Shown one piece after another: positions 1 through 38,627 of a DNA stretch of 51,200 bases. A model generated the notes under the pieces. The model did not search any database. It saw nothing but the letters and a program-made list of their open reading frames with translations, and was not told the origin of the DNA. Made by a program: the position numbers and the translations under genes. Source of the DNA: Escherichia virus TH26. The DNA lies in sequence record MT446400.1; one strand, written 5' to 3'. Within the stretch, counting starts at the first letter, position 1. Each line of letters starts with the position of its first letter.

Positions 1-149
1 ATTCGAACAAATTTCGGCTAGATACAGCTGACCGATTGTGAACGAACCCATATCCAGATACAGTTGACCGACCATGTACCATTTGGTTTTGGACTTTACG
101 CATTCCTAATATTACTCTTAATATTGTAGCAATATTGGGAATAAATAAA
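1..149. repeat. Copy of the sequence at 51052-51200 (wrap-around of a circular or terminally redundant genome)
   Basis: Direct comparison: bases 1-149 are identical to 51052-51200, giving a unit length of 51051 bp. Confidence 0.9.
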
Positions 150-252
150 TATTTAATTTACTTGTTTTATTCTAGCTCAAAGAGAAACGACGCTAACGCA
201 TCGAATCTCTTCTCGCATATAACTGACAAACGTCAGCCTTCGCCATACCCAA

Positions 253-1371
253 TCATAATTCAAATCCACCTAGAGCATTGGTATCAACTTCGGAGTCAAT
301 TTGCCCGACCAGATAAGAACTAATCTCCGTTTCCTGTGGAGCAACCTGCACAGCATCCGAATTCAACCATGCGTTAATCCACGGAATCGGATTAGTTGCA
401 CCTTTGAATGGAGCATCCAATCCAACTGCTTGCATACGAATATTCGTGATATATTCCACATATCCGCACAGAATTTGCTTGTTTAAGCCAATCATGGAGC
501 CATCTTTGAACAGATAATCAGCCCAATCTTTCTCTTGTTGAGCAGCATCTTCGAACAATTTCTGGCATTCTTCACGACATTCTTGAGCAATTTCGCCCAT
601 TTCTGGGTCATCTTTTCCGCTCGCCAAAATATTCAACATGTGCTGAGTTCCGGTCAAATGGAGTGCTTCATCTCGCGCAATCAGTCGAATAATCTTGGCA
701 TTTCCTTCCATTAATTTACGTTCTGCGAAGGCAAATGAGCAAGCAAAGCTGACATAGAAGCGAATTGCTTCAAGTGCGTTGATAGACATGAGGCATAAAT
801 AGAGCTTCTTCTTCAACTCACGAAGACTAATTTCATGACCAGCATGATTCCCTTCTCCGAACAACTGCCATAATGCGGTGAGTTCTTGAAGTTCGTCATA
901 ATATTGAGAGATGCCAATTGCTCGTGCTTTGATGTGCTCGTTAGTCACGATTTCATCAAAGATAATGCTCGGGTCTGTAACGATGTTTCGAATAATGTGA
1001 GTGTAAGAACGTGAATGAATAGTCTCAGAGAAAGACCATGTTTCAATCCACGTCTCCAATTCAGGAATGCTCACGATTGGAAGCAAAACTGTGTTGGGCC
1101 CACGTCCCTGGATAGAGTCAAGAAGAATCTGATAACGAAGATTACTCGTGAAAATGTGCTGTTCGTTTGTAGGTAGCTTCTGATAATCGATACGGTCCTG
1201 GGAAACGTCTACCTCTTCCGGTCGCCAGAAGAATGACAATTGTTTCTCAATTAACTTCTCGAATATGTCGTACTTCTGTTGGTCATATCGAGCAACGTTA
1301 ACGTTCTGACCAAAGAACATTGGTTCTAATAATTGGTTATTCTTGGTTTGTGAAAAGGTAGTGTAAGACAT
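253..1371 (-). CDS. nrdB: Ribonucleotide reductase class Ia small (beta) subunit
   Basis: 372 aa; collinear with E. coli NrdB as I recall it ([86 protein letters not shown]-terminal [13 protein letters not shown]). Confidence 0.93.
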
Positions 1372-1373
1372 TA

Positions 1374-1934
1374 TTATTTATTTCCTAAATACTTATAAAA
1401 TTTGTGTCCACCATAGGTTCCTCTTCCAACAACCCTTTTGAAATTACATTTCTCTGTAGCTGTGCAGAAGTGGGTGGCATCGGTTACATCTGGGGCATCC
1501 AACAATGCGAAGCTAATTGCCACATTCATGGCGTCCCAAACCTGTTTTGATTCAGTCTTCCAATTTGTTTTAACTATGTTCTTCCATTGAGCATTCTTCT
1601 TCTTTGCTTCTCTTGTCCAAGCAAACTGGTTGCGTTGATAAACCACATCGCAAACGGTGTTAGCGAATGGCTTCCCGAATTTGATTCGATTACGGACGAC
1701 ATTAGCTACCAGAATCTTTCCATGCTTGCTTTCTCCACGAGCTTCAAACCAAATTACTTTGGCATAGCATTCTATATCTTTGCGTTGAGAAATAGATAGT
1801 TTCGGATTTCCACTTAAATAGGATTGACTTGCAAATTCTGTAATAGTGGCGTTCACTGCCCCAGCCGAAGCTGGGACATTTGCGTGAAACAGACTCACCA
1901 ACAGAAATGCAAGAACTTGTGCTGAGGGCATCAT
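1374..1934 (-). CDS. Secreted cell-wall hydrolase, SleB/Hydrolase_2-like (candidate Sec- or SAR-type endolysin)
   Basis: 186 aa; N-terminal signal-like segment [24 protein letters not shown]; Hydrolase_2-like core [43 protein letters not shown]; adjacent to a holin-like ORF. Confidence 0.7.
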
Positions 1935-1949
1935 AGTTCCTTGTTTGCA

Positions 1950-2303
1950 TTATTTGGCCTTCTTAAACCAATTGAGTGGGTTGAGTTGTTTGATTGCAGC
2001 AGTGAAGCAATCTCGAATTGTGGTAATGATTAGGTTAGCCCCAATCAAACCAATCACCATTGCAGCGATTGTGGCATAGCGTGGTTCATTTTTGAATATG
2101 TCCACGAAGCCCGGGAGGGAGAAAACGAACGTACCAATGACTACACAAAGTAGGGCATCAAGAATAGCTTTCAGCAAGCCTTCCTTTTCATACGCCCCAC
2201 GAATGAGTGCAGTCAATCCAGCCAGGAGTCCGTGAAGAACCCCATATTGGTGCATAGAATCCCAAATCATTTGGAATGTAAGTCTGTCCATTTGGCGTTC
2301 CAC
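1950..2303 (-). CDS. Putative holin (small protein with 2-3 predicted transmembrane helices)
   Basis: 117 aa; hydrophobic helices (LHGLLAGLTALI, AILDALLCVVIGTFVFSLPGFV, YATIAAMVIGLIGANLIITTI), charged C-terminus, immediately upstream of the hydrolase. Confidence 0.45.
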   Translation of the reverse strand: MERQMDRLTFQMIWDSMHQYGVLHGLLAGLTALIRGAYEKEGLLKAILDALLCVVIGTFVFSLPGFVDIFKNEPRYATIAAMVIGLIGANLIITTIRDCFTAAIKQLNPLNWFKKAK

Positions 2304-2305
2304 TG

Positions 2306-2536
2306 TTAAAACAAAGTCTCATGCTTTGGCATATCTACATAACCAAGTTTGCCATTCACAATGCCAACCTGTTTACCAGAAGGGTTAGTTGCTGAAATAA
2401 ATTTAAGGGCATCTGAAGCAGTTACATCCAAGAAGTTAACTACAGGCCACACATTAGTAGACTCATATGCTTCTTTGAATTCATACGGGTAAAACAACCC
2501 ATTACTAAAACGGTATGTAATCTTTTCCATTATCAA
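2306..2536 (-). CDS. Hypothetical protein (possible tail-fiber assembly chaperone by position)
   Basis: 76 aa ORF directly downstream of a tail-fiber gene; 4-nt overlap typical of coupled genes. Confidence 0.3.
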   Translation of the reverse strand: MIMEKITYRFSNGLFYPYEFKEAYESTNVWPVVNFLDVTASDALKFISATNPSGKQVGIVNGKLGYVDMPKHETLF

Positions 2537-3078
2537 TATCCTATAGCAATCCAGTTACAGTTCTCAGCAGCACCGCTTGGGGCATAGTTCTGGATATATA
2601 TTTGGTTATTTCCGAGAGTAGCACCCATACCAGCATTTGAACCGGGAGCACCACGTGAGCCTGCTGCCCACAATCCTGCATGTGGAAATGCAATATTCAG
2701 GTTGTAGTTTTGTGCAGAATTTGGTGGAGTTGCCACAGTTCCCCACTGAATGATTACAGTTACTGCACCACCAGAAGTTGCAATGATTGGGACTTTCAAC
2801 CAACCATTGGCAGCCATTAGGCCTCCAAAAGCTTCGATTGGTGGGAGATACCCGAACACATTAGAACCAACTTGTCGTGTAGCAGCAGTGCCTAATCCGA
2901 GGTTATTACGAGAAACAGCTTTGTCCAGCAAGTCTGCTAGGTTCTGTCCTCTTTGGAGGGCATTGACAATACGAGCATCATCGCCAGCAGCAAGAGTGTT
3001 TGTAGTGGTGCCAACATTCAAGAAGGCACCATTTTTAAGTGCGGCAACTAAGCCGCCAAATGACCAACCTTTAGCCAT
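2533..3078 (-). CDS. Tail fiber protein (distal/tip segment)
   Basis: 181 aa; Gly/Ala/Thr/Asn-rich beta-type composition typical of fiber tips; last gene of the fiber cluster. Confidence 0.4.
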   Translation of the reverse strand: MAKGWSFGGLVAALKNGAFLNVGTTTNTLAAGDDARIVNALQRGQNLADLLDKAVSRNNLGLGTAATRQVGSNVFGYLPPIEAFGGLMAANGWLKVPIIATSGGAVTVIIQWGTVATPPNSAQNYNLNIAFPHAGLWAAGSRGAPGSNAGMGATLGNNQIYIQNYAPSGAAENCNWIAIGY

Positions 3079-3087
3079 TATCTTTCC

Positions 3088-4479
3088 TTATAAAGTGGAT
3101 ATTTGGTTTGGAAGCATTTTGAAATCCCAAACTCGGAAGTTGCGAACCACATAGTTTCTTGAGGTTGGACGATAGTGAATCTGTGGATATCTTCCAACAC
3201 ACGCAGCCGCAGCATTTTGTGAAGTGTCGGAGGCTACACGAACGCCATCAACATAAATCTCAAGCCCACTGGTTGTGCTGAGGGTTGCAACAATTCGATA
3301 CCAGCGGTTCACCTGACCAGGGAGATTATAGTAAATCCAATCACTGGCGCCAGAGGCATTTCGGTTAAGATTAAGCTGCCCTTTGTTCTGGAGATAGAAA
3401 TTTATATTCTCATTGTTCAGCCCGTTTAAGGAGAAGGACACACCAATAGAGTCATCGCTATCTGGTGCACGAGGTGTGTTGGAGAGAATGTCTACGCATA
3501 TTGTACAATCAGTAAATCCATATCCAGCACCCTCGTACATCACATCCAGATTGTCCTGACCAGCAGTTCGGTACAAAGCCCCACCATAGGCATTATTAAA
3601 ATACAAATTGTCGGGGGCGTTAATTGCACCCTTTCCACAATAAATGTGGAAATCATCAATCAAATGTTGGCAGAAGTTTGGTTCTGGTACAGCATACTTT
3701 GGTTCTTCACGAGCCTTAACTTCTGCAAATGTTGCATCAGTAATGATTCGAGAGTTGGTGTTTGTTGAAGCCTTGCCAACAACTGGAACGCCACTGGCAT
3801 CCAGACCAATACGTGTATCACCAGACTGCATATAGAAGCCAGTAGGGCCGAATGACAACTTGGTGGTCCCACTTGCATCAAACAACATACCTTGCTGGAA
3901 TGTAACAGGTCCGGTATAAGTGCCGCCAATGATAGGTACAGCACCTGCCTGAGCAGCAGTTACTTGATGGGGATTGTTTCGGTCGTCGGCATGACTTGCA
4001 ACAAGGGCATTGTATTGAGCAATCAACGAATCGATTTGTGCTTTGTTGTATGCACCAATCATGTTGGCTGTTAGTCTGTGCGGGTTAGAGGTAACATCTG
4101 CAATGTGTGCAGAAATCTTACCAACAATATCATCGTAGTCATAACGAGATACTTGAATCGCACTTGCAGCCCACTGCCCTAAGTTCTGGCTAGGACGTAG
4201 AGTACGGCTGGGAGAACCAACAGTTGCAACATAGACAGTTTGAGTTGCATCATCCCACACAAGGGAACCAAGTCCGTACTGAACATCGGTTCCCCATTCG
4301 AAGACACCACGTTCAGCTAATGCCAGAAGAGTAGTGTCAACCTTATACTGCAAATAGTTAAGAACCTGGAAGGTTGGGATTTCTGCAATCCACCCTTGAA
4401 GATACTTAGCATCCCCAGGGTCACGCCGTAAGTTGGCGTTGTTCGAAGTCCAGACTCTATTAAGTTTTGGTCTTAACAT
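3088..4479 (-). CDS. Tail fiber protein with C-terminal LamG/concanavalin-like jelly-roll domain
   Basis: 463 aa; NPHQVT-type fiber repeat motif; C-terminal ~150 aa (WIYYNLPGQVNRWYRIVATL...IYVDGVRVAS) resembles a LamG-like lectin domain. Confidence 0.5.
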   Translation of the reverse strand: MLRPKLNRVWTSNNANLRRDPGDAKYLQGWIAEIPTFQVLNYLQYKVDTTLLALAERGVFEWGTDVQYGLGSLVWDDATQTVYVATVGSPSRTLRPSQNLGQWAASAIQVSRYDYDDIVGKISAHIADVTSNPHRLTANMIGAYNKAQIDSLIAQYNALVASHADDRNNPHQVTAAQAGAVPIIGGTYTGPVTFQQGMLFDASGTTKLSFGPTGFYMQSGDTRIGLDASGVPVVGKASTNTNSRIITDATFAEVKAREEPKYAVPEPNFCQHLIDDFHIYCGKGAINAPDNLYFNNAYGGALYRTAGQDNLDVMYEGAGYGFTDCTICVDILSNTPRAPDSDDSIGVSFSLNGLNNENINFYLQNKGQLNLNRNASGASDWIYYNLPGQVNRWYRIVATLSTTSGLEIYVDGVRVASDTSQNAAAACVGRYPQIHYRPTSRNYVVRNFRVWDFKMLPNQISTL

Positions 4480-5678
4480 TATCGTCTCGCAAGCATAGAG
4501 ATTTGGTTAGCAGAAAGTCTTGGATATACGGCAAAGAATCTTAGAGCCATAACAGTCTTATCTGCAAATAAGTTATTATCAATGTAGTCTTTCAAATCAA
4601 GTCCGTCAGGAAAGTTGAAAGAATCCCCATTGGCAGTTCGCATGACCACGTCAACTTCATCGGTAGTAACCACAACAACCACAGTAGTCGGTATGTCCAG
4701 AATCGGACCAAAGAATTTCAGCCCATTGTTGGAGATTTTAAATCCACCATACCAAAACTCTGGGGCAATGGCTGTCTCAACAGTCCACAAACCAACAGAC
4801 TCTGCATCATTAATATCTTCATGGAAGTTGGCACGGAGCATTGGCACAGGAAGTGCAAACTGATTTCCGTACTTAATGTTGAAGCTGTTGTAGTTTGCTT
4901 CTGTGATGATTTCAAAAGCGCCAGCAGAGTTGATAAACCACGCGTGTCCACCACTATCCACACCGATTGCAGTAGTTCCGTTTACCAATTCAAATACACC
5001 AGTCGAATCATTTCGATGTGCATATTGTGAAACACCGCTACCAGCATACGCTTCTTCGATAAAAGCTATTGGCCCTGTGAAAGTTCCACCAGATGTTGGG
5101 AGTGTTCCGAGCTGTTCTGGGGTCACCCTGTGAACAGATGCACCAGTTCTGGAGATGTGGTACGGGATTGTCGTAACTCGTTCGTCACTGGCGAACCTGT
5201 CATACACATAATCTTGAAGGTATGTCCCATCAACAATTGTGTCCACAGTATCTTTGTGGGGGTTCTGTTCTGCCATGTGGGCATTGAACGTATTCTTGAG
5301 ATATTGAACCTTAGTATTATACTGAACAAGGTTAGTTTCAAGAACTTCCTGCCACCCACTTCCAGAAGTTGGGGGACTTATGTTTCCAGGAATCTCTTCC
5401 CGCTTCTGATAAATCTTACCATCAACTAATGCAAAAGCGCCAAGCGAATATGTTACGGTATCACACCATTGCAGTATGCCACCAAGTAACATCTCTCGAA
5501 TCTTGACGTCAGTGATTTGAGTTAAGAAGTTCTGCCATTGCTCGGGAGGCTTTTCAGCTTCCCAACCAACAGTTTCATACCTATCTGGAATATATGATGG
5601 TGCAGTTGTATCCAAGTCGGGGTCAAGTGCTTCGCCATCCTGCGCCCAATACTCTGGGTAATTAAAACGATTTGTCAT
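4479..5678 (-). CDS. Tail fiber / baseplate-attached fiber protein
   Basis: 399 aa; NPH motif (MAEQNPHKDTV), Gly/Thr-rich segments; sits between the baseplate genes and the distal fiber. Confidence 0.45.
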   Translation of the reverse strand: MTNRFNYPEYWAQDGEALDPDLDTTAPSYIPDRYETVGWEAEKPPEQWQNFLTQITDVKIREMLLGGILQWCDTVTYSLGAFALVDGKIYQKREEIPGNISPPTSGSGWQEVLETNLVQYNTKVQYLKNTFNAHMAEQNPHKDTVDTIVDGTYLQDYVYDRFASDERVTTIPYHISRTGASVHRVTPEQLGTLPTSGGTFTGPIAFIEEAYAGSGVSQYAHRNDSTGVFELVNGTTAIGVDSGGHAWFINSAGAFEIITEANYNSFNIKYGNQFALPVPMLRANFHEDINDAESVGLWTVETAIAPEFWYGGFKISNNGLKFFGPILDIPTTVVVVVTTDEVDVVMRTANGDSFNFPDGLDLKDYIDNNLFADKTVMALRFFAVYPRLSANQISMLARR

Positions 5679-6319
5679 CGGTTCTCCGGTGGATAAACTC
5701 TAGAAACATGTGGGAGGTCAATAGCACCACCATTGTCTGCAAGAGTTATGGAGATGCCAACAGGTTTAAAGTCTGGGAGCATATATGCCAACAAGACTTT
5801 CTCAGCAACTGATAACGTGTCATGCACCTGGTAATGGAGAGTTTGGAATCCTTCAACAATCTCAAGATTCAAGCTACGACCAAGAACAAGGTCTATATAA
5901 GTAATCAGTTCTTCGATTGTACAGCTTCCGACAATCTTACGAATACGGGCACGTATCGCATCTTTAAGCTGAGTGTCGGTACGAACAAAGTCACCAGAGT
6001 CCCGGTCACTATCCGACTTCAAGAAACCACCAACGCCAGGATTATTATCATCTCCAGCAGGGAATGCACTTGGGTCAGAATAGAAACCGAAGTACCCAAG
6101 TGGTGCAGCACCATAGATAGTACGGCTGGCACCAATGAGATATGCAATATCATCAACCATGACGCCGAATGAATCAGCAAGGTAGCGATATTTAACAGAC
6201 TCTTCTTGAGCATTTTGAACGAGCTTTAACTCGTCCAAGAAAATCTGGATATATGCCCGTAAGTTTGGAGAATCGCTATACTGCATTAGCAGCATATCTA
6301 AACCAGATTTACCAGCCAT
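5675..6319 (-). CDS. Baseplate protein (P2 gpI / Mu gp48-like by position)
   Basis: 214 aa; follows the Baseplate_J-like gene with a 4-nt overlap. Confidence 0.4.
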   Translation of the reverse strand: MAGKSGLDMLLMQYSDSPNLRAYIQIFLDELKLVQNAQEESVKYRYLADSFGVMVDDIAYLIGASRTIYGAAPLGYFGFYSDPSAFPAGDDNNPGVGGFLKSDSDRDSGDFVRTDTQLKDAIRARIRKIVGSCTIEELITYIDLVLGRSLNLEIVEGFQTLHYQVHDTLSVAEKVLLAYMLPDFKPVGISITLADNGGAIDLPHVSRVYPPENR

Positions 6320-6327
6320 GATTAACC

Positions 6328-7482
6328 TTATGGTGTTTCAGTGAAAATTACAGACGCAGTTGTGGCTTCTGCCTTCTTATCAATGTCCAGTTCGATTGTG
6401 GCAATTCCAGTAGGACTTGCAGAAGTACCAATGAACAATGAGTCAACCTGGACACCGTTGGTGGCATCCATGATAGGTTTGAAACATTCTGACCAGATAA
6501 CAGAATCACCTGGGTTCAGTGAGTTGATATAATCCATCATAGCCGTTTGCAATTGGCGTGCAGCATCGTTGGAGCTAATGTTAGAACCAGGGCGACGCTT
6601 GAATGTACCAGCTACATAAATGGTTGCATCTTCTGGACGGCTGAACTTAACTTCGTGCGGATAACCTTTACTGTCATAAATAGACACAGATGTAGTACCG
6701 TGAGTAGGAACACCACCAGTTTTGGTTGAATAGATTCGACGGGCAATTTCGTCCTCTGTTCCACCCTCTACGACAACAAAGACTGTACCCGAAGGCTGAG
6801 TCCCAATAGGAGCGCCGGTATCATTATCACGAATACGAAGGTAAGATAGATTAAGGTCAGCGAGTGCAGCGTAAATAGCTTCAACAAAGGCCGAACCGCT
6901 GTGCGCAGTAGTCCTGTCACGGCGAGTACGAAGTGCTGGGTCAGATTCATAATCCACACCTGTTTGTCCAATCTCTGGGTTGTTAACTGACTCCCAACCT
7001 GTGACTGGTGTAATGATTTTATTGACAGTGTCGGCAGCAATATAATATTCGCCAGTTTCTGTGGCTACTGCCGTAACAGTTCCTGGAATAATGCAATCAT
7101 ATTGCGTTTCGAAATCCGTTGTTCCATCACTGACAATAGAGCCAGCAGGAACAAGAGTGCCAGCCTGACCAGCACAACGGACACCAACACGAGAAGGCCA
7201 GTTGACCAATCGTTTAGTGAAGGTCAGTTCACAGATGTTGTCCAAACCAATCTTCTGCATTGCACCAGGACGATAGGCATTGAATACCATTTCAGCCTGT
7301 TGCCAGCACTTAGAGATTTCTTCCGAAATGATTCCAATAACCTGACCATCTGGGCCTTCTGGACTAATGTCAAAGTTGGCACCAAATACGCTAAGGAATC
7401 TGCTATTAATGTGCGACACGATTTCTTGAACAGGCTTCTGTACGAACCCGTTTTCAGTCACGCCGTACTGGATTGTTGCCAT
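6328..7482 (-). CDS. Baseplate protein J-like
   Basis: 384 aa; size and position (after the gpW-like gene, before gpI-like and fibers) match a Baseplate_J wedge protein. Confidence 0.55.
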   Translation of the reverse strand: MATIQYGVTENGFVQKPVQEIVSHINSRFLSVFGANFDISPEGPDGQVIGIISEEISKCWQQAEMVFNAYRPGAMQKIGLDNICELTFTKRLVNWPSRVGVRCAGQAGTLVPAGSIVSDGTTDFETQYDCIIPGTVTAVATETGEYYIAADTVNKIITPVTGWESVNNPEIGQTGVDYESDPALRTRRDRTTAHSGSAFVEAIYAALADLNLSYLRIRDNDTGAPIGTQPSGTVFVVVEGGTEDEIARRIYSTKTGGVPTHGTTSVSIYDSKGYPHEVKFSRPEDATIYVAGTFKRRPGSNISSNDAARQLQTAMMDYINSLNPGDSVIWSECFKPIMDATNGVQVDSLFIGTSASPTGIATIELDIDKKAEATTASVIFTETP

Positions 7483-10956: not shown

Positions 10957-10984
10957 CTATTGAAATTAATACATATTCAAATAA

Positions 10985-11018
10985 TGTTAAAGAAGAATGC
11001 CGAGATTAAATCCCGGCA
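10985..11018 (-). terminator. Rho-independent terminator candidate downstream of the tape-measure gene
   Basis: On the minus strand: 8-bp stem TGCCGGGA...TCTCGGCA with a TTTAA loop, followed by TTCTTCTTT. Confidence 0.45.
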
Positions 11019-11023
11019 CTTTC

Positions 11024-14000
11024 TTATCTGCGTTCCATTGCACCATTACCCATGTTGATTGTTTGGGTAACAGTTTGACCGTTCGGAGTTGACACGGTTG
11101 CAGACGCTTGCTTGTTGTTCACAGTAGCTTTGACTTCAACGTTAACTACAGTGGCCTGTGTCTGACCATAAGACAGTCCATTTCTGGTGAAGCCAGTTGC
11201 ACCTTCCGCAATAGAATCGCCCTGAGAAGCCCATTCACGGTACTTCTTGACGCGGTTCTGTGCCTGTAGAGGAACAGCATTGAGCCAGTCGGTTCCGTGT
11301 TTGTTGATAGCATCATCAACAGTTCCAGCACCATCCGTATACGCCGCCATAACCTTCTCAGCGTCACCATTATAACGCTTGAGCATTGCATCATAGTAGT
11401 CACGACCAACGCGAGCACGCTCTTCCAGAGAGTTATCACGGGCAGGTGTAACGCCAAATCCTGGGTCACGGGAAGTTGAATCAAGAACTTGCATACGACC
11501 TTTAGCACCAGTTGGCGATGTAACCACCGAACCATCTGCGTTCAAATCGCGGTTCCCTGACTCTTCTCCTGCGATAAAGTCATAAACATTACGTGTTGCA
11601 TCGGCTGCACCATTGGGGGCCATACGCATCGTTCTGGCTGCATCTCCACCTGCTTCGATAAATGAACTTCCGTAGGATATTGCAGCTTGCGGAACTGCAT
11701 ATCCTGGCAGCACCCCAGCACGCTCCGTCTGCGCTATTCCTAGCTGTGCAACGCCATCGGCATACTGTGAGCTGGCTCCACGGCTTACGTTCTCCTGAGC
11801 CTCGTTCACGCTGTAATCTGTACGGTCATAGGCGCGAGCCATGCCATCCAGACCAGCCATTTGCATAGCGCCAGCGATACGCGCCTGACTCCAGCCCCGC
11901 TCCTGACCACGTTCGCGCATTACCCGCGCTAAGGCTACAGGGTCGCCCTGTGCCGCACGAATGTCGCCAATTGTGATAAGACCACGGGTTCCCTGAACGA
12001 TGTTCACAGCGCCGCTGGGGTCGCCATTCAGGAGAGTGTTATAGGCACTATGTGTGGTTCGATTGAGTCGGCCAGCTTGTTGCTGATTAAGCCCCAACAT
12101 TTCCAAGCCCTGCGACATGGAAGAATATTCATTAGGGTTATTGACACCAGCGTCTAAAGAGTTTCCGTAGAAATCGTTCAGACCTTCCAGAGCTTCGTTA
12201 CCAATTTGGGTAGCACCAATAGCCATACCAGCGACACGACCCCACGGAGTCATCATCATGGCATTCATAGCGCCATTGGATAAAGAGCCAATACTGCCAC
12301 CAGCTACGCCAGCAGCCAATGCACCACCCATGCGACCGAAGTCATCGCCAAAACTTCCACCAGCTTGCCACCCACGACGCCCACCACCGCCACCAGAACC
12401 ACCACCGCTAATGCCATAGCTACTAGCATCAATGTTGTCCCAGAAGCCGCCTGAGCGCCCACCGTCGCCACCGCCGAAATCTGCATCCTGACCACGGAGT
12501 TTGTTTTCTTCCTGTGCTGCGAGGATACCTTTCTTAACCGACACAGCCATCATGTCATTGCCAGTTGTGCTATCAGCGCCAACAGCAGAGGCTGTAGCAG
12601 CACCAACTCCAGCATCGGTACGGTTGCCTATGAATGGGTCATCAGGTGTGCCAGCAGCAGGAGAGTAGCCACGATTTGACCTCTGCTTAACATCCTTCCA
12701 CAGGCCGTCACCAGTCATGGCAGCACGAGCACCCTTGATTAAATCATCATTGGACAAGTCTGGATTAGCTTCAACAAACTCTCGACCAGCATTAAGACGA
12801 CCAATAACAGAATCAATCTTATCTTTGTTGCGGTCGTACCATCCTTCATCCTTGTCAATCCACTCCGACTTCGTGGTATCGCCGATGGTTTGAGAAAACA
12901 ATGCGCGCGAACGACCAGATACAAGCATCCCAAATTGAATTTGGTCCATGTAATCTTTATGGTCACCCGCAGATAAGTTGGCAAACTTGCCAGCCCTTTG
13001 AGGGTTCTTGTGTTCCCAAATCGCGTCATCGCCGATAAGACCATCTGGGGAATACATGAACGACGGATAATTGTCATTTGTAATTGCGCCAGCTTGCTCA
13101 ATGTCGAATCCAAATTCTTTGGCTACACGGTTACGAGCAACTTCTTCCGTCCGATGGCCTGCTTCGAACATTCGTTGGGTAAATTCACTTGGCCCCTTTC
13201 CGCGTTGTAGGCCAATTTTGTCAATCATTGCAGCCCAAGGTCGAGTATATTCATTGTTACCAAGAAATGAACCGACAGTTGAGCCTGTAATGTCATATTG
13301 TTTACGGAAGTCTAACCACTCCTGAGTACCCTGTTCCATATTATGAAACTTGATTGGGCCTTGTTGTGGTTCAGGCTGAGGAACAGCGGAATCCAGGTTT
13401 GCGATTGCAATGCTCTCACGACGAGAGCGAGCAGAGTTCCAACTCGTTGGTGAATCAAGCTGTGCAATAAACTCTGTAGATGGACTTAATTCAACAGGTC
13501 CAGTGTTTCTTAAACGTTCAGCAGGGTCGAAAGTCTTACTGATTTCAGCTTCATTATATTGGTGAGCATTTTCCAGTACGCCACGAATAGATGCACCAGA
13601 ATAACGAGGGTCATCACCAATATCTTTCTTTAGGTTGTCATAACCAGAACGAGCATCTGCAAGGTCTGTATAACGAGATGCAGAATCAAGAATCAAATCT
13701 CGGTCAGAAGATTGAGTGCGATATGCGTTCATCCCTCGTTCTGAACCACCAACATATACCTTAGCAGCAGATTTAACTACGCCAGATACATCTTGATATA
13801 AAGATTTACTTGCATCAGACCAACCTGGGGAGCCAGATAATGATGCAGATAAAGAATATTCAGCTTTAATGCCAGAACCCATAGAGCCTAAAGGTAGGCC
13901 AGATGCGTTAAGCGGTTGTCGGGGATGTTGAATATCACCAACAATAGATTCAGAACCAAGTTGAGGAAGAGAATCCATGTATGAAACTCTTGGCCCCGAC

Positions 14001-14698
14001 TTATTACCTACATTCATTGCAGATACAGCAGCAACTTCACGGAAGTTTTGCGGCAATTCTGATTCTAAACGTTTGGCTACACGATAAACATCTCGTGCAT
14101 AGCGGTCTGGGTCGTCATATTGTTGACGGTCAACATATATATGAGCAAGATAGCCCATAGATTTGGCAATATCTCCACGGTTTGTAGAGTATTCACCCAT
14201 AATGTCACCAGTGTAATGACCAGGAAGTTCCGGCATTATATCTTGATGACCTGCCAGCGTATCACGCATGTACGCATTAAGCATTCCCCAATGACCTTCT
14301 GGTTTGTTTGGGTTTGCTTTAGGCATGTGCATCCACACATCATCGGCGGATACACCTAATTTCTCCATGTAGGCATGAACAGCTTCTACATGGTGACTTG
14401 GACCGTTCATTGCAGCATGGAATGTTTCAGCAAGCCCAGCACCAGAAATCATCTGTGCAACGTGAGCTGAGTCTGAAATCATGTCGGAAGTGCCATAAGA
14501 GATGCCATCATCTTCTGTATAGGTTTCTTCCATAAGCTGTGAATTTGTTTCCATCCAACCAGAGGCAGCACTTGATTCAAGTTGCTGTGCCATATCTCGT
14601 TTGCGCATACCTGGATTGAATGACAGACCATATTGAGCACCTAAGCCAATCAATTCGGCTTCGGACATTCTCATTAAATCTTTTATGTTATTAGCCAT
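11024..14698 (-). CDS. Tail tape-measure-like protein with C-terminal lytic transglycosylase (SLT)-like domain
   Basis: 1224 aa; lies between the tail chaperone and baseplate genes; central Gly-rich tract (GGGDGGRSGG...GGGSGGGGGRRG); C-terminal segment with SLT-like motifs (ESGNRD...GAKGRMQVLDST...AYTDGAGTV). Confidence 0.5.
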   Translation of the reverse strand: MANNIKDLMRMSEAELIGLGAQYGLSFNPGMRKRDMAQQLESSAASGWMETNSQLMEETYTEDDGISYGTSDMISDSAHVAQMISGAGLAETFHAAMNGPSHHVEAVHAYMEKLGVSADDVWMHMPKANPNKPEGHWGMLNAYMRDTLAGHQDIMPELPGHYTGDIMGEYSTNRGDIAKSMGYLAHIYVDRQQYDDPDRYARDVYRVAKRLESELPQNFREVAAVSAMNVGNKSGPRVSYMDSLPQLGSESIVGDIQHPRQPLNASGLPLGSMGSGIKAEYSLSASLSGSPGWSDASKSLYQDVSGVVKSAAKVYVGGSERGMNAYRTQSSDRDLILDSASRYTDLADARSGYDNLKKDIGDDPRYSGASIRGVLENAHQYNEAEISKTFDPAERLRNTGPVELSPSTEFIAQLDSPTSWNSARSRRESIAIANLDSAVPQPEPQQGPIKFHNMEQGTQEWLDFRKQYDITGSTVGSFLGNNEYTRPWAAMIDKIGLQRGKGPSEFTQRMFEAGHRTEEVARNRVAKEFGFDIEQAGAITNDNYPSFMYSPDGLIGDDAIWEHKNPQRAGKFANLSAGDHKDYMDQIQFGMLVSGRSRALFSQTIGDTTKSEWIDKDEGWYDRNKDKIDSVIGRLNAGREFVEANPDLSNDDLIKGARAAMTGDGLWKDVKQRSNRGYSPAAGTPDDPFIGNRTDAGVGAATASAVGADSTTGNDMMAVSVKKGILAAQEENKLRGQDADFGGGDGGRSGGFWDNIDASSYGISGGGSGGGGGRRGWQAGGSFGDDFGRMGGALAAGVAGGSIGSLSNGAMNAMMMTPWGRVAGMAIGATQIGNEALEGLNDFYGNSLDAGVNNPNEYSSMSQGLEMLGLNQQQAGRLNRTTHSAYNTLLNGDPSGAVNIVQGTRGLITIGDIRAAQGDPVALARVMRERGQERGWSQARIAGAMQMAGLDGMARAYDRTDYSVNEAQENVSRGASSQYADGVAQLGIAQTERAGVLPGYAVPQAAISYGSSFIEAGGDAARTMRMAPNGAADATRNVYDFIAGEESGNRDLNADGSVVTSPTGAKGRMQVLDSTSRDPGFGVTPARDNSLEERARVGRDYYDAMLKRYNGDAEKVMAAYTDGAGTVDDAINKHGTDWLNAVPLQAQNRVKKYREWASQGDSIAEGATGFTRNGLSYGQTQATVVNVEVKATVNNKQASATVSTPNGQTVTQTINMGNGAMERR

Positions 14699-35994: not shown

Positions 35995-36216
35995 TTATTT
36001 TAATGATGCCTGTAATGACGCATTTAGTACAGAACGCTTTTCATATTCGCGTTGATTGTACGTGTTTGTCAGTGCTTCCGCAGCTTCGATTGACAGAGCC
36101 GCAAATCCACCAAAGGCGTTGCGAACTTCTTCAATATCCATGTGCAGGACTTCATTGGTAATTTGGTTGGCAATTGCAGCCTTGAAAATCTCTTCGGCAA
36201 TTTCAGCAGTTTTCAT
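35995..36216 (-). CDS. Hypothetical protein
   Basis: 73 aa ORF downstream of the ThyX-like gene. Confidence 0.3.
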   Translation of the reverse strand: MKTAEIAEEIFKAAIANQITNEVLHMDIEEVRNAFGGFAALSIEAAEALTNTYNQREYEKRSVLNASLQASLK

Positions 36217-36865
36217 GTTTCTCTCCAGTTAAATTTAAGTAAGTGCCCTGACGTGGACTATTACGAACATTACAATAAATTGGCTTAAATGATGTTTCCA
36301 CTGCGGCCAAGACACTTATTAAATTTGATTCGAACCGCCCAAGTGAATCAGCTTTGTTTATGGGGACCATCGGGGAAAAGTATAAACCCGCTTAATGCTC
36401 GCATCATGTTTGAACATTAAGAACCCTGACTTGCATATTTCATGTGAATAGGAACATAGTCTGGATTTTGAATCCAGCTAACTTCGAGAAGAGGAGTAGC
36501 TCAAACGAAAGCCTGAACTTTCTTTCGACACATCACAATCAGCGCAACTGAGCCGTATCGCTACGGTATGCCAGACGCTCTCTTGAGCCTTTTGAACAGA
36601 GGCATAACTGCTTAGGAATTCTGTGGCCTTTACGCGGCCAACGTGCCATTAATGCTGGCAAGACAGAGCTAACGTTCTCAAGCACTTTGGCGAGGGTGTT
36701 CTCGGACACTGTTCTAGGAAGTGACCACCTGAACTTTCTCGCGTTCAATACGAGGCAGCAATTTCAATTGTTATGCCCAGAGCAATTGCAGGAATTACAC
36801 CTGCCATGCTACAAGTAGCTAGAGTCTCGTTATTTAAAGTCGCGCACTCCCTCGACTTTGTTCAC

Positions 36866-37075
36866 TCACTGTCGGGTAAGTTGGGAACACTTTTGTGCCC
36901 ACGTTTCATTGTGGACTAAAATCTGGGTTTTGGTTTCGCGTGACAAAACTTTCACTTCTGCAACATCCAAATAGGTTGGTTGTGCAATTAAGCAATAATC
37001 ACTTACGAACCCACTTTGAGAGCAACTCACTATCGACATTGCTATCAGAACTGCTAGACACTTCTTTCTGAACAT
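36866..37075 (-). CDS. Outer-membrane spanin-like lipoprotein (o-spanin candidate)
   Basis: 69 aa; signal peptide with lipobox-like SIVSC; short mature part with additional Cys; overlaps the 3' part of the preceding ORF in another frame. Confidence 0.5.
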   Translation of the reverse strand: MFRKKCLAVLIAMSIVSCSQSGFVSDYCLIAQPTYLDVAEVKVLSRETKTQILVHNETWAQKCSQLTRQ

Positions 37076-37235
37076 GCGATTTAATCTCGATAGATTCTTT
37101 TAACGAATCGAATTGCTTCTCTTTGGCTTCCTGACGCTCCTCGGCTTTGCCTGAGCTTTTGCCCTTGAGGAACACTGCAATGAGAATACCCAATGCAGTC
37201 AAGACGCCAAGAAATATTGACTTAAGCTGTTGCAT
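36999..37235 (-). CDS. Inner-membrane spanin-like protein (i-spanin candidate)
   Basis: 78 aa; N-terminal transmembrane helix (IFLGVLTALGILIAVFL) followed by a charged, coiled-coil-like segment. Confidence 0.45.
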   Translation of the reverse strand: MQQLKSIFLGVLTALGILIAVFLKGKSSGKAEERQEAKEKQFDSLKESIEIKSHVQKEVSSSSDSNVDSELLSKWVRK

Positions 37236-37399
37236 GAATCACCTTAGATGGCGCACGCACCACTTGAACAGTCGTTATCGCCAGCACCAGGAACGATTGC
37301 TTCTTCGTCCTGCTTCTTCTTAAGTTCTTCAATCGCCTCTTCGGCAGCACCGAAGTCCAAATTGTCTAGTGCGTCAATGTCCATGAGGACTCCATGTTT

Positions 37400-37495
37400 G
37401 TTGTTGAGAGTGGCGGACGAGGTTGGATTCGAACCAACGACACATCTGTCTTACAGATTGCTCTACCTGACTAAGCTCTGGAGCAGACCTTCTGA
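37400..37495 (-). tRNA. tRNA gene (96 nt with encoded CCA) carrying a ~19-nt insertion in the D-arm region; anticodon not confidently assigned
   Basis: Minus-strand sequence has a 7-bp acceptor stem (GGACGAG/CTCGTCC), a T-arm GTTGG-TTCGAAT-CCAAC, discriminator G plus CCA, D-arm elements GCTCAG...GTCAGGTAGAGC, and an extra hairpin AAGGTCTG-CTC-CAGAGCTT. Confidence 0.55.
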
Positions 37496-38164
37496 GCTAC
37501 TCGTCCAAAGAATAAGAGGGGGGTTTTGATAACGCAGGTTTTCCCGAACTGCGAGGCTTGTAGCAAGACAGTCGCATTACTTTGCGAATGCCAGCAGGAT
37601 TGATGGTCCGACCGTCTTTGCTTAGGCAACCTGATTTAATCTACCTTTGTAGATACCATCGGTTATGAGCAGTTTATTTCCATGCTCAGGGCAATTCACT
37701 TTAGGCGAATTAAGTTTGTACCTTGTCACACCCGCACGCACCTGGGGGGCTTAAGTCTGCATTACATCGCAAGATACAAATTAATTGGCTCTCCGATTTA
37801 TTAATCACATCTCGGAGAAACAATGCGCCAAATTTGGTTACATGGGATTGGAAGACCACGGAGAGGACTTAAATTTAATTAAGCCGCAACTCGCATTTCA
37901 GAATCATTTGCACTTGTGTTTAGTGTTTAAAACAGTCGCAATAACTTCAGGCAGTTTAGGCCCGTCGTAAGACTCAGAAAACTACTTCAATTTGTACACA
38001 ACAAATTTCCCAACATTGGCTTCCGTCGAAGGCTCATGCGATGGTGTTTGGATTATGCACAAATTGAAACCCACTCACTCGGAATGGATTCAAGGCAGCA
38101 CCGGAAATCTTCCAGTGCATGCCAGATCGATTTAGCTTAGTCTCTCAAGTTTGCCATCGGCAAC

Positions 38165-38503
38165 TTAGAATACAGGAGCTTCTTCCACAGCAGCTTCAGC
38201 AGCTTCAACTACTTCTGCTTCGGCAACTTTGACTTCTTTCGGAGTATCGAACGCAACACGTTCAACTTCCGGGCAACCAGCTTCAACCCACGGCAGATAG
38301 AATGCCAGGAACGCAGCAGCGGTGTTCATCTGCATGGAGCGAGAACGGTCAATCAGCTTGTTGGTGTTAGCAAACGCTTCAACAGCAGCATCAATTTTAG
38401 CACCGTTTTCCAGTTTGAAATCGTGTGCGTTACACTCAGCTTCGCTCAGGAACAGGGAACCATCGTTAGCTTCGTACTGAGTTACGGTTACAATCTTAGC
38501 CAT
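38165..38503 (-). CDS. Hypothetical protein with acidic Ala/Glu-rich C-terminus
   Basis: 112 aa ORF preceded by a conserved promoter-like motif. Confidence 0.35.
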   Translation of the reverse strand: MAKIVTVTQYEANDGSLFLSEAECNAHDFKLENGAKIDAAVEAFANTNKLIDRSRSMQMNTAAAFLAFYLPWVEAGCPEVERVAFDTPKEVKVAEAEVVEAAEAAVEEAPVF

Positions 38504-38580
38504 TTGTATATATACCTTATGTAGATTTAATGCACGCCACCATTGGCGCGACTTATGAAATAATAAAGAGCCTTTCTCTT

Positions 38581-38608
38581 TTCACATTCAATTAATGTTT
38601 CAGAACTG
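38581..38608 (-). promoter_or_regulatory. Conserved promoter-like motif (degenerate copy), putative phage-RNAP promoter
   Basis: Plus strand reads ttcacattcaATTAATGtttcagaactg; matches the 8-member motif family; about 90 nt upstream of the 38503 start. Confidence 0.4.
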
Positions 38609-38627
38609 CTCTGATTTAACAAACAAC

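Follow-up and report, generated by a model that had tools for sequence, protein, structure and literature searches.

Lysis genes at three loci in a phiEcoM-GJ1-like coliphage, with a predicted exported SleB-like hydrolase and a signal-less M15C peptidase

What does a coliphage do with two muralytic enzymes of different families, encoded at separate loci? The question is raised by the stretch of DNA analysed here (51,200 nucleotides of Escherichia virus TH26, record MT446400.1; hereafter the window), for which the original prediction had placed lysis genes at three separate loci, had called this arrangement unusual for a 51 kb phage, and had proposed that one of the two enzymes may act at entry or in superinfection. 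Every element is found where it had been placed, and all lie on the minus strand (Table 1). The scattering of the lysis genes is real, but it is the normal, already known gene set of the phiEcoM-GJ1-like phage family.

The window is ~90–93% identical, in reversed orientation, to Carltongylesvirus phages of the Chaseviridae (TH25, MLP1, PYps3T and phiEcoM-GJ1, hereafter GJ1); it is a nearly complete phiEcoM-GJ1-like coliphage and covers most, not all, of a genome of ~52–53 kb. The same layout recurs in Carltongylesvirus, in Suwonvirus PM1, in Loessnervirus and in one 46%-identical metagenomic relative, and is conserved in the Cleopatravirinae, so that the term "unusual" is not supported. Nor is the enzyme pair confined to these phages: an exported SleB-like protein beside a second endolysin without a signal is also found in T5-like phages, PaP1, Vequintavirinae and Phapecoctavirus. 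For the layout, annotations already exist in ST32, Mangalitsa, PYps3T, PM1 and Loessnervirus phages: Table 2 of ST32 names both the SleB-like and the M15 protein endolysins, and the Mangalitsa annotation reads [quoted passage not shown]. We infer that the three-locus scattering is a derived gene order and does not itself indicate that the functions differ. In the Chaseviridae literature we found no experiment on the SleB-like or M15 enzyme of any member; the sole endolysin paper found for that family concerns an unrelated 217-aa lysozyme-like enzyme of Pantoea phage PA1, and lysis is not a subject of the Tiny, Mangalitsa and Myduc papers.

Table 1. Predicted lysis-related genes, domains and regulatory sites in the window
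Feature	Position	Strand	Details
Terminator-like hairpin after nrdB	188..203	-	consensus scan only
Exported SleB-like (Hydrolase_2) muralytic enzyme, predicted	1374..1934	-	186 aa; PF07486, phrog_938; signal sequence aa 1-23, helix 24-41, catalytic domain ~48-186
Class I (lambda S family) holin	1950..2291	-	113 aa from ATG; PF05106, phrog_126
Phage-RNAP promoter-like site	10970..10989	-	1 mismatch to GJ1 promoter 9
Tape-measure gene	11024-14698	-	1224 aa protein
SLT (lytic transglycosylase) domain, C-terminal end of tape-measure protein	11294..11524	-	PF01464, aa 1059-1135, E 1.4e-6; GEES motif
o-spanin	36866..37075	-	69 aa outer-membrane lipoprotein; lipobox I-V-S-C18, Ser at +2; phrog_1275
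i-spanin	36999..37235	-	78 aa, N-terminal TMD, short charged periplasmic domain; phrog_1026
tRNA	37414..37506	-	24-nt D-arm insertion; 179 nt upstream of i-spanin gene
Phage-RNAP promoter-like site	38582..38599	-	upstream of tRNA + spanin segment; counterpart of GJ1 promoter 7
Signal-less M15C L-alanoyl-D-glutamate peptidase, EndoT5 type	41911..42306	-	131 aa; PF13539, phrog_465
Phage-RNAP promoter-like site	44694..44711	-	1 mismatch to consensus; counterpart of GJ1 promoter 3

The gene at the end of the tail-fibre cluster, originally described as holin-like, is matched in profile searches by PF05106 at 37.3 bits (cut-off 23.8) and by phrog_126 (E = 1.6e-20), and its orthologues are annotated as holins in PYps3T, PM1, Mauresque, SA91KD and Mangalitsa. 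Two strongly hydrophobic segments (within aa 41–71 and 75–101; Kyte-Doolittle >2 in a 19-residue window), a weaker third one near the N-terminus (~aa 20–38) and a basic C-terminal tail, NWFKKAK, give the three transmembrane segments and charged C-terminal tail expected of a class I holin. The open reading frame reaches a GTG at 2303; this codon is neither conserved nor preceded by a Shine-Dalgarno sequence, and a start at the ATG at 2291 yields a product of 113 aa, the length in GJ1, ST32 and Mangalitsa, so that translation probably begins at this ATG, with the GTG unused. A dual-start holin/antiholin was considered and ruled out, since, besides the missing Shine-Dalgarno sequence, stop codons stand at that position in the closest relative, PYps3T, and other relatives show no consistent second start. 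The SleB-like gene follows the holin gene after a gap of 15 nt and has a Shine-Dalgarno sequence.

The SleB-like protein aligns with the whole of the Pfam Hydrolase_2 profile (positions 1–100 of 100; 58.8 bits, cut-off 27, E = 9e-16) and with phrog_938 (E = 5e-20). A sequence search places Glu64, in the motif FEARGE, opposite the GESRGE of Bacillus SleB (PDB 4F55 and 4FET); this residue is invariant in 38 homologues and is also present in T5.083, PaP1 gp029 and PM1, while C56 and C95 are kept in at least 90% of the 38. The AlphaFold model (pLDDT 87.6 overall, >93 over aa 50–186) returned from Foldseek, as its sole matches, the SleB catalytic domains 4FET and 4F55, with probability 1.00 and target TM-scores of 0.69–0.72. 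The signal-peptide-bearing SleB-like hydrolase of the original prediction is borne out; loss of the catalytic residues, named there as grounds for refutation, does not apply, as the catalytic Glu and the SleB fold are both retained. What the protein has in common with Bacillus SleB/CwlJ is the catalytic-domain fold and the catalytic Glu motif; sequence identity is only ~20%, the N-terminal PG-binding three-helix domain of the Bacillus proteins gives way to a signal peptide and a short helix, and the wall of the phage host is without muramic δ-lactam. Expression of the CB7 homologue in E. coli is reported to be toxic (data not shown), and the CR3 homologue is implicated in host lysis by a report cited in the CB7 paper.

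The N-terminus of this protein may be a cleavable signal peptide or, as the GenBank label has it, a SAR domain. The window protein begins with 32 uncharged residues that include a strongly hydrophobic 10-mer; the hydrophobic stretch runs into P-A-S-A-G-A, with Pro at −4 and A-S-A|G, and the n-region is without the usual Lys, unlike that of its relatives. Some 60 homologues keep a signal-peptide architecture, with a Lys near position 5, an h-region of ~10–12 aa and a c-region of the form ASxG[AT], AEA, SNA or SHA, small residues thus standing at −3 and −1; almost all have four Cys, and in divergent homologues the uncharged N-terminal stretch is just 14–19 aa long. Because of the conserved small (−3,−1) residues and Pro at −4, the short h-regions and these short uncharged stretches, a cleaved signal peptide fits better than a SAR domain, and the comparison suggests that the GenBank label is the less apt of the two. 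If so, this E. coli phage would have an endolysin with a cleavable signal peptide, which falls outside both textbook lysis routes, namely holin-endolysin and pinholin-SAR endolysin; the question also bears on any enzybiotic use of exported SleB-like proteins.

The second enzyme had been called a T5-type M15 endolysin of the early region, of which the first part stands and the second does not. The protein matches PF13539 (36.2 bits, cut-off 25) and phrog_465 (E = 2.6e-54) and, in the PDB, EndoT5 (2MXZ, E = 1.7e-20), 8Q2G and 23RI (both at ~E 1e-23) and ChiX (5OPZ). The Zn ligands H63, D70 and H126, the catalytic D123 and the conserved W104 are all present, their EndoT5 counterparts being H66, D73, H133, D130 and W114. 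The GJ1 orthologue is included in a published M15_C alignment, and the protein is conserved across genera at 60–96% identity. No 19-residue window of it reaches a Kyte-Doolittle value of 1.4 and its N-terminus is not signal-like; from its sequence it would be a soluble cytoplasmic protein that depends on the holin. The start of its gene overlaps the stop of the gene upstream by 1 nt and, because it is located behind phage-RNAP promoters, the gene is assigned on motif grounds to the middle transcription class, not to the host-RNAP early class.

A scan of the window for the phage-RNAP consensus gave nine sites, against 0.12 expected by chance. One of the promoter-like sites of Table 1 heads the unit that runs from SSB through the M15 peptidase to an ArdA-like gene (44694..44711), and another heads the last late unit, which comprises baseplate, tail fibres, holin, SleB-like gene and nrdB (10970..10989); no other consensus match lies between 10970 and position 1. 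The holin and SleB-like genes are the penultimate genes of that last unit, before nrdB, and the late transcript that contains the lysis genes probably has its 3' end at the hairpin. Sigma-70 and terminator scans of the 36–45 kb region gave counts at or below shuffled expectation and are uninformative on timing there. The timing of the lysis genes is read from promoter motifs only. A loose literature search found no transcriptome data for the phage family.

At the third locus, the overlapping spanin pair next to a tRNA (36866–37235) is borne out by TMD, lipobox and profiles. The i-spanin (phrog_1026, E = 2e-19) has its TMD within aa 1–29 (Kyte-Doolittle 2.33), followed by ~50 charged residues; it is unusually short, lacks Cys and is 95–96% identical in GJ1 gp31 and Mangalitsa_037. 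The o-spanin (phrog_1275, E = 8e-17) carries the lipoprotein signal MFRKKCLAVLIAMSIVS-C18-S, with a non-Asp residue at +2, has Cys18, Cys28 and Cys63 in its mature form, and is 96–97% conserved in Mangalitsa_038 and in GJ1, the record of which leaves it without annotation. Its gene begins within that of the i-spanin, in a different frame, overlaps it by 77 nt (36999–37075) and extends 133 nt beyond it, and both frames are 95–97% conserved in GJ1 and Mangalitsa. The tRNA is matched by Rfam RF00005 (41.5 bits, E = 7e-7) and annotated in GJ1 as "tRNA-Arg, may contain an intron"; ARAGORN finds nothing at this position. A dedicated superinfection gene was also sought, as Mangalitsa has a T4 Imm-like gene near its spanins; tblastn finds none in the window. 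The SLT domain that had been predicted in the tape measure is confirmed by PF01464, GJ1 gp62 carries the note "transglycosylase domain at C-terminus", and the domain would supply the entry-associated muralytic activity.

We consider it somewhat better than even, at a probability of roughly 0.6, that the window holds the ordinary lysis equipment of a Carltongylesvirus, in which the two muralytic enzymes reach the cell wall by different routes and both serve lysis. The M15 peptidase would accumulate harmlessly in the cytoplasm, while late in infection the SleB-like enzyme would be exported by Sec, its signal most likely being cut by signal peptidase I and less likely retained as a SAR anchor, and would stay latent as long as the membrane is energised. 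Upon triggering of the lambda-S-type holin, large holes would release the M15 peptidase, and depolarisation would free or activate the periplasmic SleB-like enzyme; peptide stems and glycan strands would then be cut together, after which the spanins would fuse inner and outer membranes. The tape-measure SLT domain would act separately, at DNA entry. Cooperation of the two enzymes in lysis is argued from Shewanella phage Spp001 (Nefertitivirinae), in which an M15_3 peptidase gene (phrog_894) adjoins the SleB-like gene in one post-tail-fibre cluster with small membrane proteins; M15C is absent from that phage, which has the different M15_3 peptidase instead. A role in lysis is compatible with an endolysin gene that lies in the early or middle region, since the endolysin linked to the holin in T5-like phages is the M15 peptidase.

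Several points stand against the two-route account. In T5 and PaP1 the SleB-like gene is found among early or nucleotide-metabolism genes, away from the endolysin-holin cassette, and this placement hints that the family may not be primarily one of lysis enzymes. Furthermore, a soluble hydrolase free in the periplasm would be expected to cause lysis even with no holin unless it is restrained, and no restraint is identified here. The toxicity reported for the CB7 homologue is likewise counted against this account.

The first of these points leads to a reading that we think rather unlikely, in which the M15C peptidase alone is a true endolysin, set free by the holin as its T5 counterpart is, and the exported SleB-like protein serves as an accessory factor of wall remodelling in the periplasm, one that lysis does not require and that might pre-weaken or process the wall, or act only on wall already cut by its partner. 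Bacillus SleB requires a modified substrate, the stem-less muramic δ-lactam, which would fit such a factor. So would the company that the protein keeps: in T5-like phages, PaP1, Vequintavirinae, Phapecoctavirus and one unclassified contig the exported SleB-like protein always occurs with a separate, signal-less endolysin, the family of which varies (M15C, Muramidase, GH19 or lysozyme), and in T5 and PaP1 its gene is unlinked to the lysis cassette. What weighs against dispensability is that in every Cleopatravirinae genome examined the SleB-like gene holds the classical endolysin position right after the holin, together with the toxicity of the CB7 homologue and the involvement in lysis that the CB7 paper cites for CR3. 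A broader form of the idea, to which we give poor odds, is that the exported SleB-like proteins of Gram-negative phages form a separate class of auxiliary lysins, placed in the periplasm in advance, which do no harm to intact wall and act only after its processing by a partner endolysin; that processing may be, for example, the cutting of peptide stems as by an M15 L-Ala-D-Glu peptidase, by analogy with Bacillus SleB and its stem-less substrate.

Similarly improbable in our view is the converse, in which lysis falls to the SleB-like protein alone, a SAR endolysin as the annotations of Mangalitsa, DE15 and 4HA13 have it, and the M15 peptidase is redundant or has some other intracellular or early role. 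The GenBank terms "SAR endolysin" and "holin class I", the long uncharged N-terminus of the window protein and the position of the M15 gene amid SSB and anti-restriction genes all favour it, but the signal-peptide features of the homologues set out above do not, and the M15 protein retains every catalytic residue and is conserved across genera, its only known substrate being periplasmic and reachable only via holin holes. As for the proposal that one enzyme is a virion component or works in superinfection exclusion, virion-associated lysins are common in phages and the M15 gene lies far from the holin, yet we found no positive support for it and regard it as very improbable. No feature of the M15 protein points to export or to virion targeting, the SleB-like gene lies next to that of the holin, both enzymes are small, single-domain proteins without a structural-protein domain, the window has no T4 Imm-like gene, and an entry enzyme is already accounted for by the tape-measure SLT domain. 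Weakly in line with this, the mass-spectrometry table for CsCl-purified 4HA13 virions, which gives proteins with at least 50% coverage only, includes the tape-measure protein and even contaminating SSB, and neither the M15 protein nor the SleB-like enzyme. A non-canonical accessory role for the SleB-like enzyme may exist.

For the window itself little follows, as its genes and layout are those of a described genus, annotated in several GenBank records and papers. The broader question is why phiEcoM-GJ1-like, T5-like, PaP1-like and rV5-like phages have all retained an SleB-like enzyme exported by Sec beside a conventional cytoplasmic endolysin. The auxiliary-lysin idea, if true, would explain export without host killing, including export from genes that are early ones in T5 and PaP1, the co-occurrence with a second endolysin in all six of the six phage lineages examined, and the adjacency of peptidase and SleB-like genes in Spp001.

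Set beside known systems, the window is closest to GJ1, ST32, Mangalitsa and PYps3T, in which gene set, order and orientation are identical (gp21-type M15 peptidase, gp31-type spanins beside the tRNA, gp73 holin, gp74 SleB-like protein, gp75 NrdB) and the differences are allelic only. Its holin/SleB-like cassette is of the TH23/PYps3T type, the SleB-like protein being 98% identical to those of PYps3T and TH23 and 73% to that of GJ1, the M15 protein is 96% identical to that of MLP1, and the distal tail-fibre genes upstream of the cassette are swapped relative to its Carltongylesvirus relatives. Like the S/R/Rz/Rz1 genes of lambda, it combines a class I holin (PF05106 in both), a spanin of two components and a soluble endolysin gated by the holin, a part that would here fall to the M15 protein; lambda, on the other hand, has four contiguous genes in place of three loci, a single transglycosylase endolysin in place of two enzymes, an Rz1 gene fully embedded in Rz where the spanin genes here overlap without embedding, and a dual-start holin where no dual start is conserved here.

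T5 and its relatives (Demerecviridae) have the same pair of enzymes, with a signal-less M15C L-Ala-D-Glu peptidase, Lys (EndoT5), and the small SleB-like T5.083 with its N-terminal signal peptide at separate loci, a tape measure with a lytic domain, and spanins. The linkage is reversed: T5-like phages have M15 next to the holin and the SleB-like gene by itself in the early/tRNA region, whereas in the window it is the SleB-like gene that neighbours the holin and M15 that stands by itself. In Certrevirus CB7 and other Vequintavirinae, too, a signal-peptide SleB-like hydrolase adjoins a candidate holin, a T5-like M15 peptidase and spanins lie elsewhere, and there is no single lysis cassette; these genomes are of ~145 kb, however, the candidate holin is of class II with two TMDs, and the partner endolysin varies within the group between M15, GH19 and lysozyme-like enzymes. 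For an endolysin with a signal peptide encoded beside a holin, the likeness is to Lys44 of the Oenococcus phage fOg44, reportedly a Sec-exported enzyme with a cleavable signal peptide (in the window protein cleavage is predicted). In a system of that type the holin would collapse the membrane potential and so activate an enzyme already exported; fOg44 differs from the window in its Gram-positive host and in having one enzyme only.

Megablast searches with positions 1-6000 and 36000-43500 of the window matched ~50 phage records, the top matches being Escherichia phages TH25, TH23 and MLP1 and Yersinia phage PYps3T at 90-93% identity, with phiEcoM-GJ1 (GJ1) at ~90% across 36000-43500. These phages are classified in the genus Carltongylesvirus (Chaseviridae, Cleopatravirinae), and such relatives are myophages with a genome of ~52-53 kb and a T7-like RNA polymerase. 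The window is a near-complete genome in reversed conventional orientation, with all genes on the - strand; early/middle genes, including that for RNA polymerase, lie at the high-coordinate end, while the low-coordinate end carries the tail fibres, the lysis cassette and nrdB. The holin, SleB-like hydrolase, M15 peptidase, spanin pair and SLT-bearing tape measure named in the original prediction were all found by Pfam or phrog match, and the lysis genes of the window are those already known from an established phage genus. For the holin, the ATG at 2291 is the most likely start (113 aa, the same length as in GJ1, ST32 and Mangalitsa), since the GTG at 2303 falls within the Shine-Dalgarno region and is not kept among relatives.

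Lysis genes, neighbouring features and promoter-like sites of the window
Feature	Position	Strand	Match or comment
Hairpin	203-188		end of last unit
nrdB	253-1371	-	class Ia ribonucleotide reductase beta subunit
SleB-like protein, 186 aa	1374-1934	-	Pfam Hydrolase_2 (SleB/CwlJ family), 58.8 bits, cut-off 27; phrog_938
Holin, lambda-S family	1950-2303	-	PF05106; phrog_126, E 2e-20
Distal tail-fibre genes	2306-3078	-	181-aa and 76-aa proteins
Promoter-9-like site	10970-10989		opens last unit
Tape-measure protein, 1224 aa	11024-14698	-	SLT domain at aa 1059-1135
Nuclease domain in tape measure	12899-13339	-	~aa 454-600; PF09588, E 2.5e-12
Rz-like spanin	36866-37075	-	phrog_1275
Rz-like spanin	36999-37235	-	phrog_1026
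tRNA	37414-37506	-	Rfam, 41.5 bits; 24-nt D-arm insertion; adjoins spanins
Phage-promoter-like site	38582		upstream of tRNA and spanins
M15 peptidase, 131 aa	41911-42306	-	PF13539; phrog_465, E 3e-54
Small protein	42802-43188	-	apparent signal peptide
Phage-promoter-like site	44694		opens unit containing M15 gene
RNA polymerase	48443-50629	-	with early/middle genes
Phage-promoter-like sequence	50620-50637	-	2 mismatches; upstream edge of RNA polymerase ORF

That the spanins adjoin a tRNA is borne out by Rfam. ARAGORN, run over the whole window, reports zero tRNAs and misses this one, probably because of the D-arm insertion; the GJ1 counterpart is annotated as a tRNA-Arg that 'may contain an intron', and the Mangalitsa paper, likewise using ARAGORN, gives zero tRNAs. 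The GJ1 spanins appear in a 2018 spanin survey.

The original prediction was to be refuted if the SleB-like protein lacked catalytic residues, and it does not lack them. Glu64, in the sequence FEARGE, corresponds in alignment to the GESRGE motif of SleB from B. cereus and B. anthracis and is invariant in a 38-sequence alignment with an identity range of 31-86%. We take its position to be that of the catalytic glutamate identified in the SleB structure papers. An AlphaFold model built from the same alignment predicts a SleB fold (mean pLDDT 87.6, >93 from residue 50 on), and the PDB holds no significant neighbours of it other than 4FET and 4F55, both SleB catalytic domains (probability 1.00, target TM-score 0.69-0.72). 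The catalytic Glu of SleB was reported as essential in a 2025 B. cereus paper.

GenBank records of Mangalitsa, DE15 and 4HA13 label the orthologue a "SAR endolysin". Of the 63 homologues obtained by database search, nearly all lie on phage-sized contigs of ~50-54 kb; the N-termini of these homologues have the three-part architecture standard for signal peptidase I substrates: Lys is usual at position 5, the hydrophobic core of ~10-12 residues is strong and freely variable in sequence, Pro is frequent at -4, and positions -3 and -1 are small (ASA/G, VGA/, AEA/M, SNA/S, SHA/N, the slash marking the predicted cleavage site). The uncharged N-terminal stretch is just 14-19 residues in divergent homologues, short for a membrane-spanning SAR domain. 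Four cysteines are kept in almost all family members, C56 and C95 being at least 90% conserved, as would be expected of an oxidised periplasmic protein. Because of these N-termini, the short uncharged stretch and the conserved cysteines, we favour a predicted cleaved signal peptide over SAR by roughly two to one. The homologue T5.083 of phage T5 begins with a textbook signal peptide (MKAALLLVAALTFSFSSQA/SHD), unlike gp029 of Pseudomonas phage PaP1, which resembles an uncleaved anchor. The SAR label is probably a mislabelling, and in this, together with the biology of exported SleB-like phage proteins, lies the residual interest of the window.

The M15 protein matches EndoT5 (2MXZ, E 2e-20), two more phage L-Ala-D-Glu peptidases and Serratia ChiX in the PDB. 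Present in it are H63, D70 and H126, Asp123 and Trp104, which correspond to the zinc ligands, the catalytic Asp and the essential Trp known from EndoT5 and EndoRB49, and the GJ1 orthologue is already in a published M15_C alignment. The whole 131-aa sequence has no hydrophobic segment, so the wall would be accessible to it only via holin lesions.

The M15 gene does lie where the original prediction placed it, but this is not an early region read by host polymerase. In GJ1 the only annotated sigma-70 promoter precedes the RNA polymerase gene and the nine phage promoters lie elsewhere, and the phage-promoter consensus, AACATTAGTTGGATGTGA, has 9 sites on the - strand of the window vs 0.12 expected. 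One of these promoter-like sites opens the unit that runs from SSB to the M15 and ArdA-like genes. The last unit opens just past a terminator-like hairpin that follows the tape-measure gene, and it comprises baseplate, tail fibres, holin, SleB-like gene and nrdB. The promoter-like sequence at the edge of the RNA polymerase ORF, where GJ1 has only the sigma-70 promoter annotated, could let the phage polymerase drive transcription of its own gene. Two genes upstream of M15, in the same unit, the small protein with an apparent signal peptide (MKTLYIALTILFGVFAFKSEA/SV...) has no Pfam match.

The orphan nrdB starts 2 nt past the SleB-like stop codon as the last gene of the late operon, and no ORF of NrdA size occurs anywhere in the window. 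Shewanella phage Spp001 has nrdA and nrdB together; PM1, Mauresque and a metagenomic relative lack nrdB behind the cassette. Directly upstream of the holin stand a 181-aa protein, gp53-like in its C-terminal domain, and one of 76 aa similar to tail-fibre assembly proteins; in PYps3T the first protein there is 450 aa long and the assembly protein 176 aa. This difference from the closest relatives looks like a host-range cassette swap. The tape measure contains an embedded YqaJ/lambda-exonuclease-like PD-(D/E)XK nuclease domain, which aligns with exonuclease 3SYY (E 2e-7) including the SPDGL...E-x-K motif; a nuclease carried by an ejected tail protein is out of the ordinary and may merit a separate look.

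We propose the following mechanism. The M15 peptidase would build up in the cytoplasm while the SleB-like enzyme is exported by Sec late in infection; holin triggering would release the one and activate the other, and with the wall cut by both, lysis would be completed by the short overlapped spanins. The tape-measure SLT domain would serve entry. The suggestion that one of the two enzymes acts at entry or in superinfection finds no support: the published list of 4HA13 virion proteins, limited to those of at least 50% coverage, contains the tape measure and even contaminating SSB but neither enzyme, and no homologue of the Mangalitsa T4 Imm-like gene is detectable in the window. That gene, Mangalitsa_034 (7043-7297 of its record), encodes a membrane protein for superinfection immunity and lies between the promoter-7 region and the spanins. 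An accessory role for the SleB-like protein, the main rival reading, arises from the question of how an exported hydrolase stays quiet until the holin fires, a problem sharpened by the T5 and PaP1 homologues, which sit among early or metabolic genes. The same question leads, speculatively, to a substrate-gated enzyme; the homologue in Certrevirus CB7 is reported to be toxic in E. coli, which argues against strict gating.

Nor is the arrangement the unusual one that had been proposed. The holin and SleB-like genes directly follow the tail-fibre genes in PYps3T, SA91KD, Mangalitsa and GJ1 (Carltongylesvirus), and likewise in PM1 (Suwonvirus), Mauresque (Loessnervirus) and the metagenomic relative (46% identity); 80 phage records hold a full-length orthologue, and the M15 gene has an equivalent early/middle position in MLP1, Bp10, 4HA13, Calisson, GJ1, ST32 and Mangalitsa. 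The published ST32 gene table lists ORF24 and ORF78 each as "endolysin" and ORF77 as "holin". The SleB-like protein is 96-99% identical to those of TH23, PYps3T and MLP1 and ~73% to those of GJ1, ST32 and Mangalitsa, and the holin is nearer that of Pectobacterium phage PM1 (71%) than that of SA91KD (64%); the two allelic cassette types within one genus suggest that the genome has recombined at its right end. 'Staphylococcus phage Pel53' (PP952070.1, 53.7 kb; host Staphylococcus hyicus) has a SleB-like gene 73% identical and typical of E. coli Carltongylesvirus, so the record looks to have a wrong host label or to come from a contaminant.

The combination recurs beyond the Chaseviridae. T5 has a holin-linked M15 Lys together with T5.083, a 149-aa SleB-like protein of its early/tRNA region, and T5-like records such as SB6 and Uniso31 have M15 and SleB-like matches ~20 kb apart. 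PaP1 has a canonical muramidase-holin-spanin cassette behind the tail fibres and also a membrane-anchored SleB-like protein amid DNA-ligase and dCMP-deaminase genes. In CB7 and other Vequintavirinae, a signal-peptide SleB-like protein adjoins a candidate class II holin, with a second endolysin and the spanins each at another locus. A Phapecoctavirus announcement reports both a lysozyme and Hydrolase_2, and in an unclassified contig Hydrolase_2 and a weak GH19 match are ~5 kb apart.

The most telling comparison is with Spp001, of the sister subfamily Nefertitivirinae, whose genome lacks the M15C gene. Behind its tail-fibre gene lie five genes in series. The first four encode proteins of 134 aa (N-terminal TMD, faint spanin-like match), 104 aa, 63 aa (a membrane protein) and 122 aa (Peptidase_M15_3, phrog_894 endolysin), and the fifth a SleB-like protein that starts with a hydrophobic domain. 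The Chaseviridae thus pair a zinc peptidase with a SleB-like enzyme across the whole family, and the adjacency of the two in one late cluster of Spp001 argues that they would act jointly in lysis. The three-locus layout of the Cleopatravirinae may then be argued to be a rearranged, partner-swapped form of that single cassette, in which case the scattering would be no sign of separate functions.
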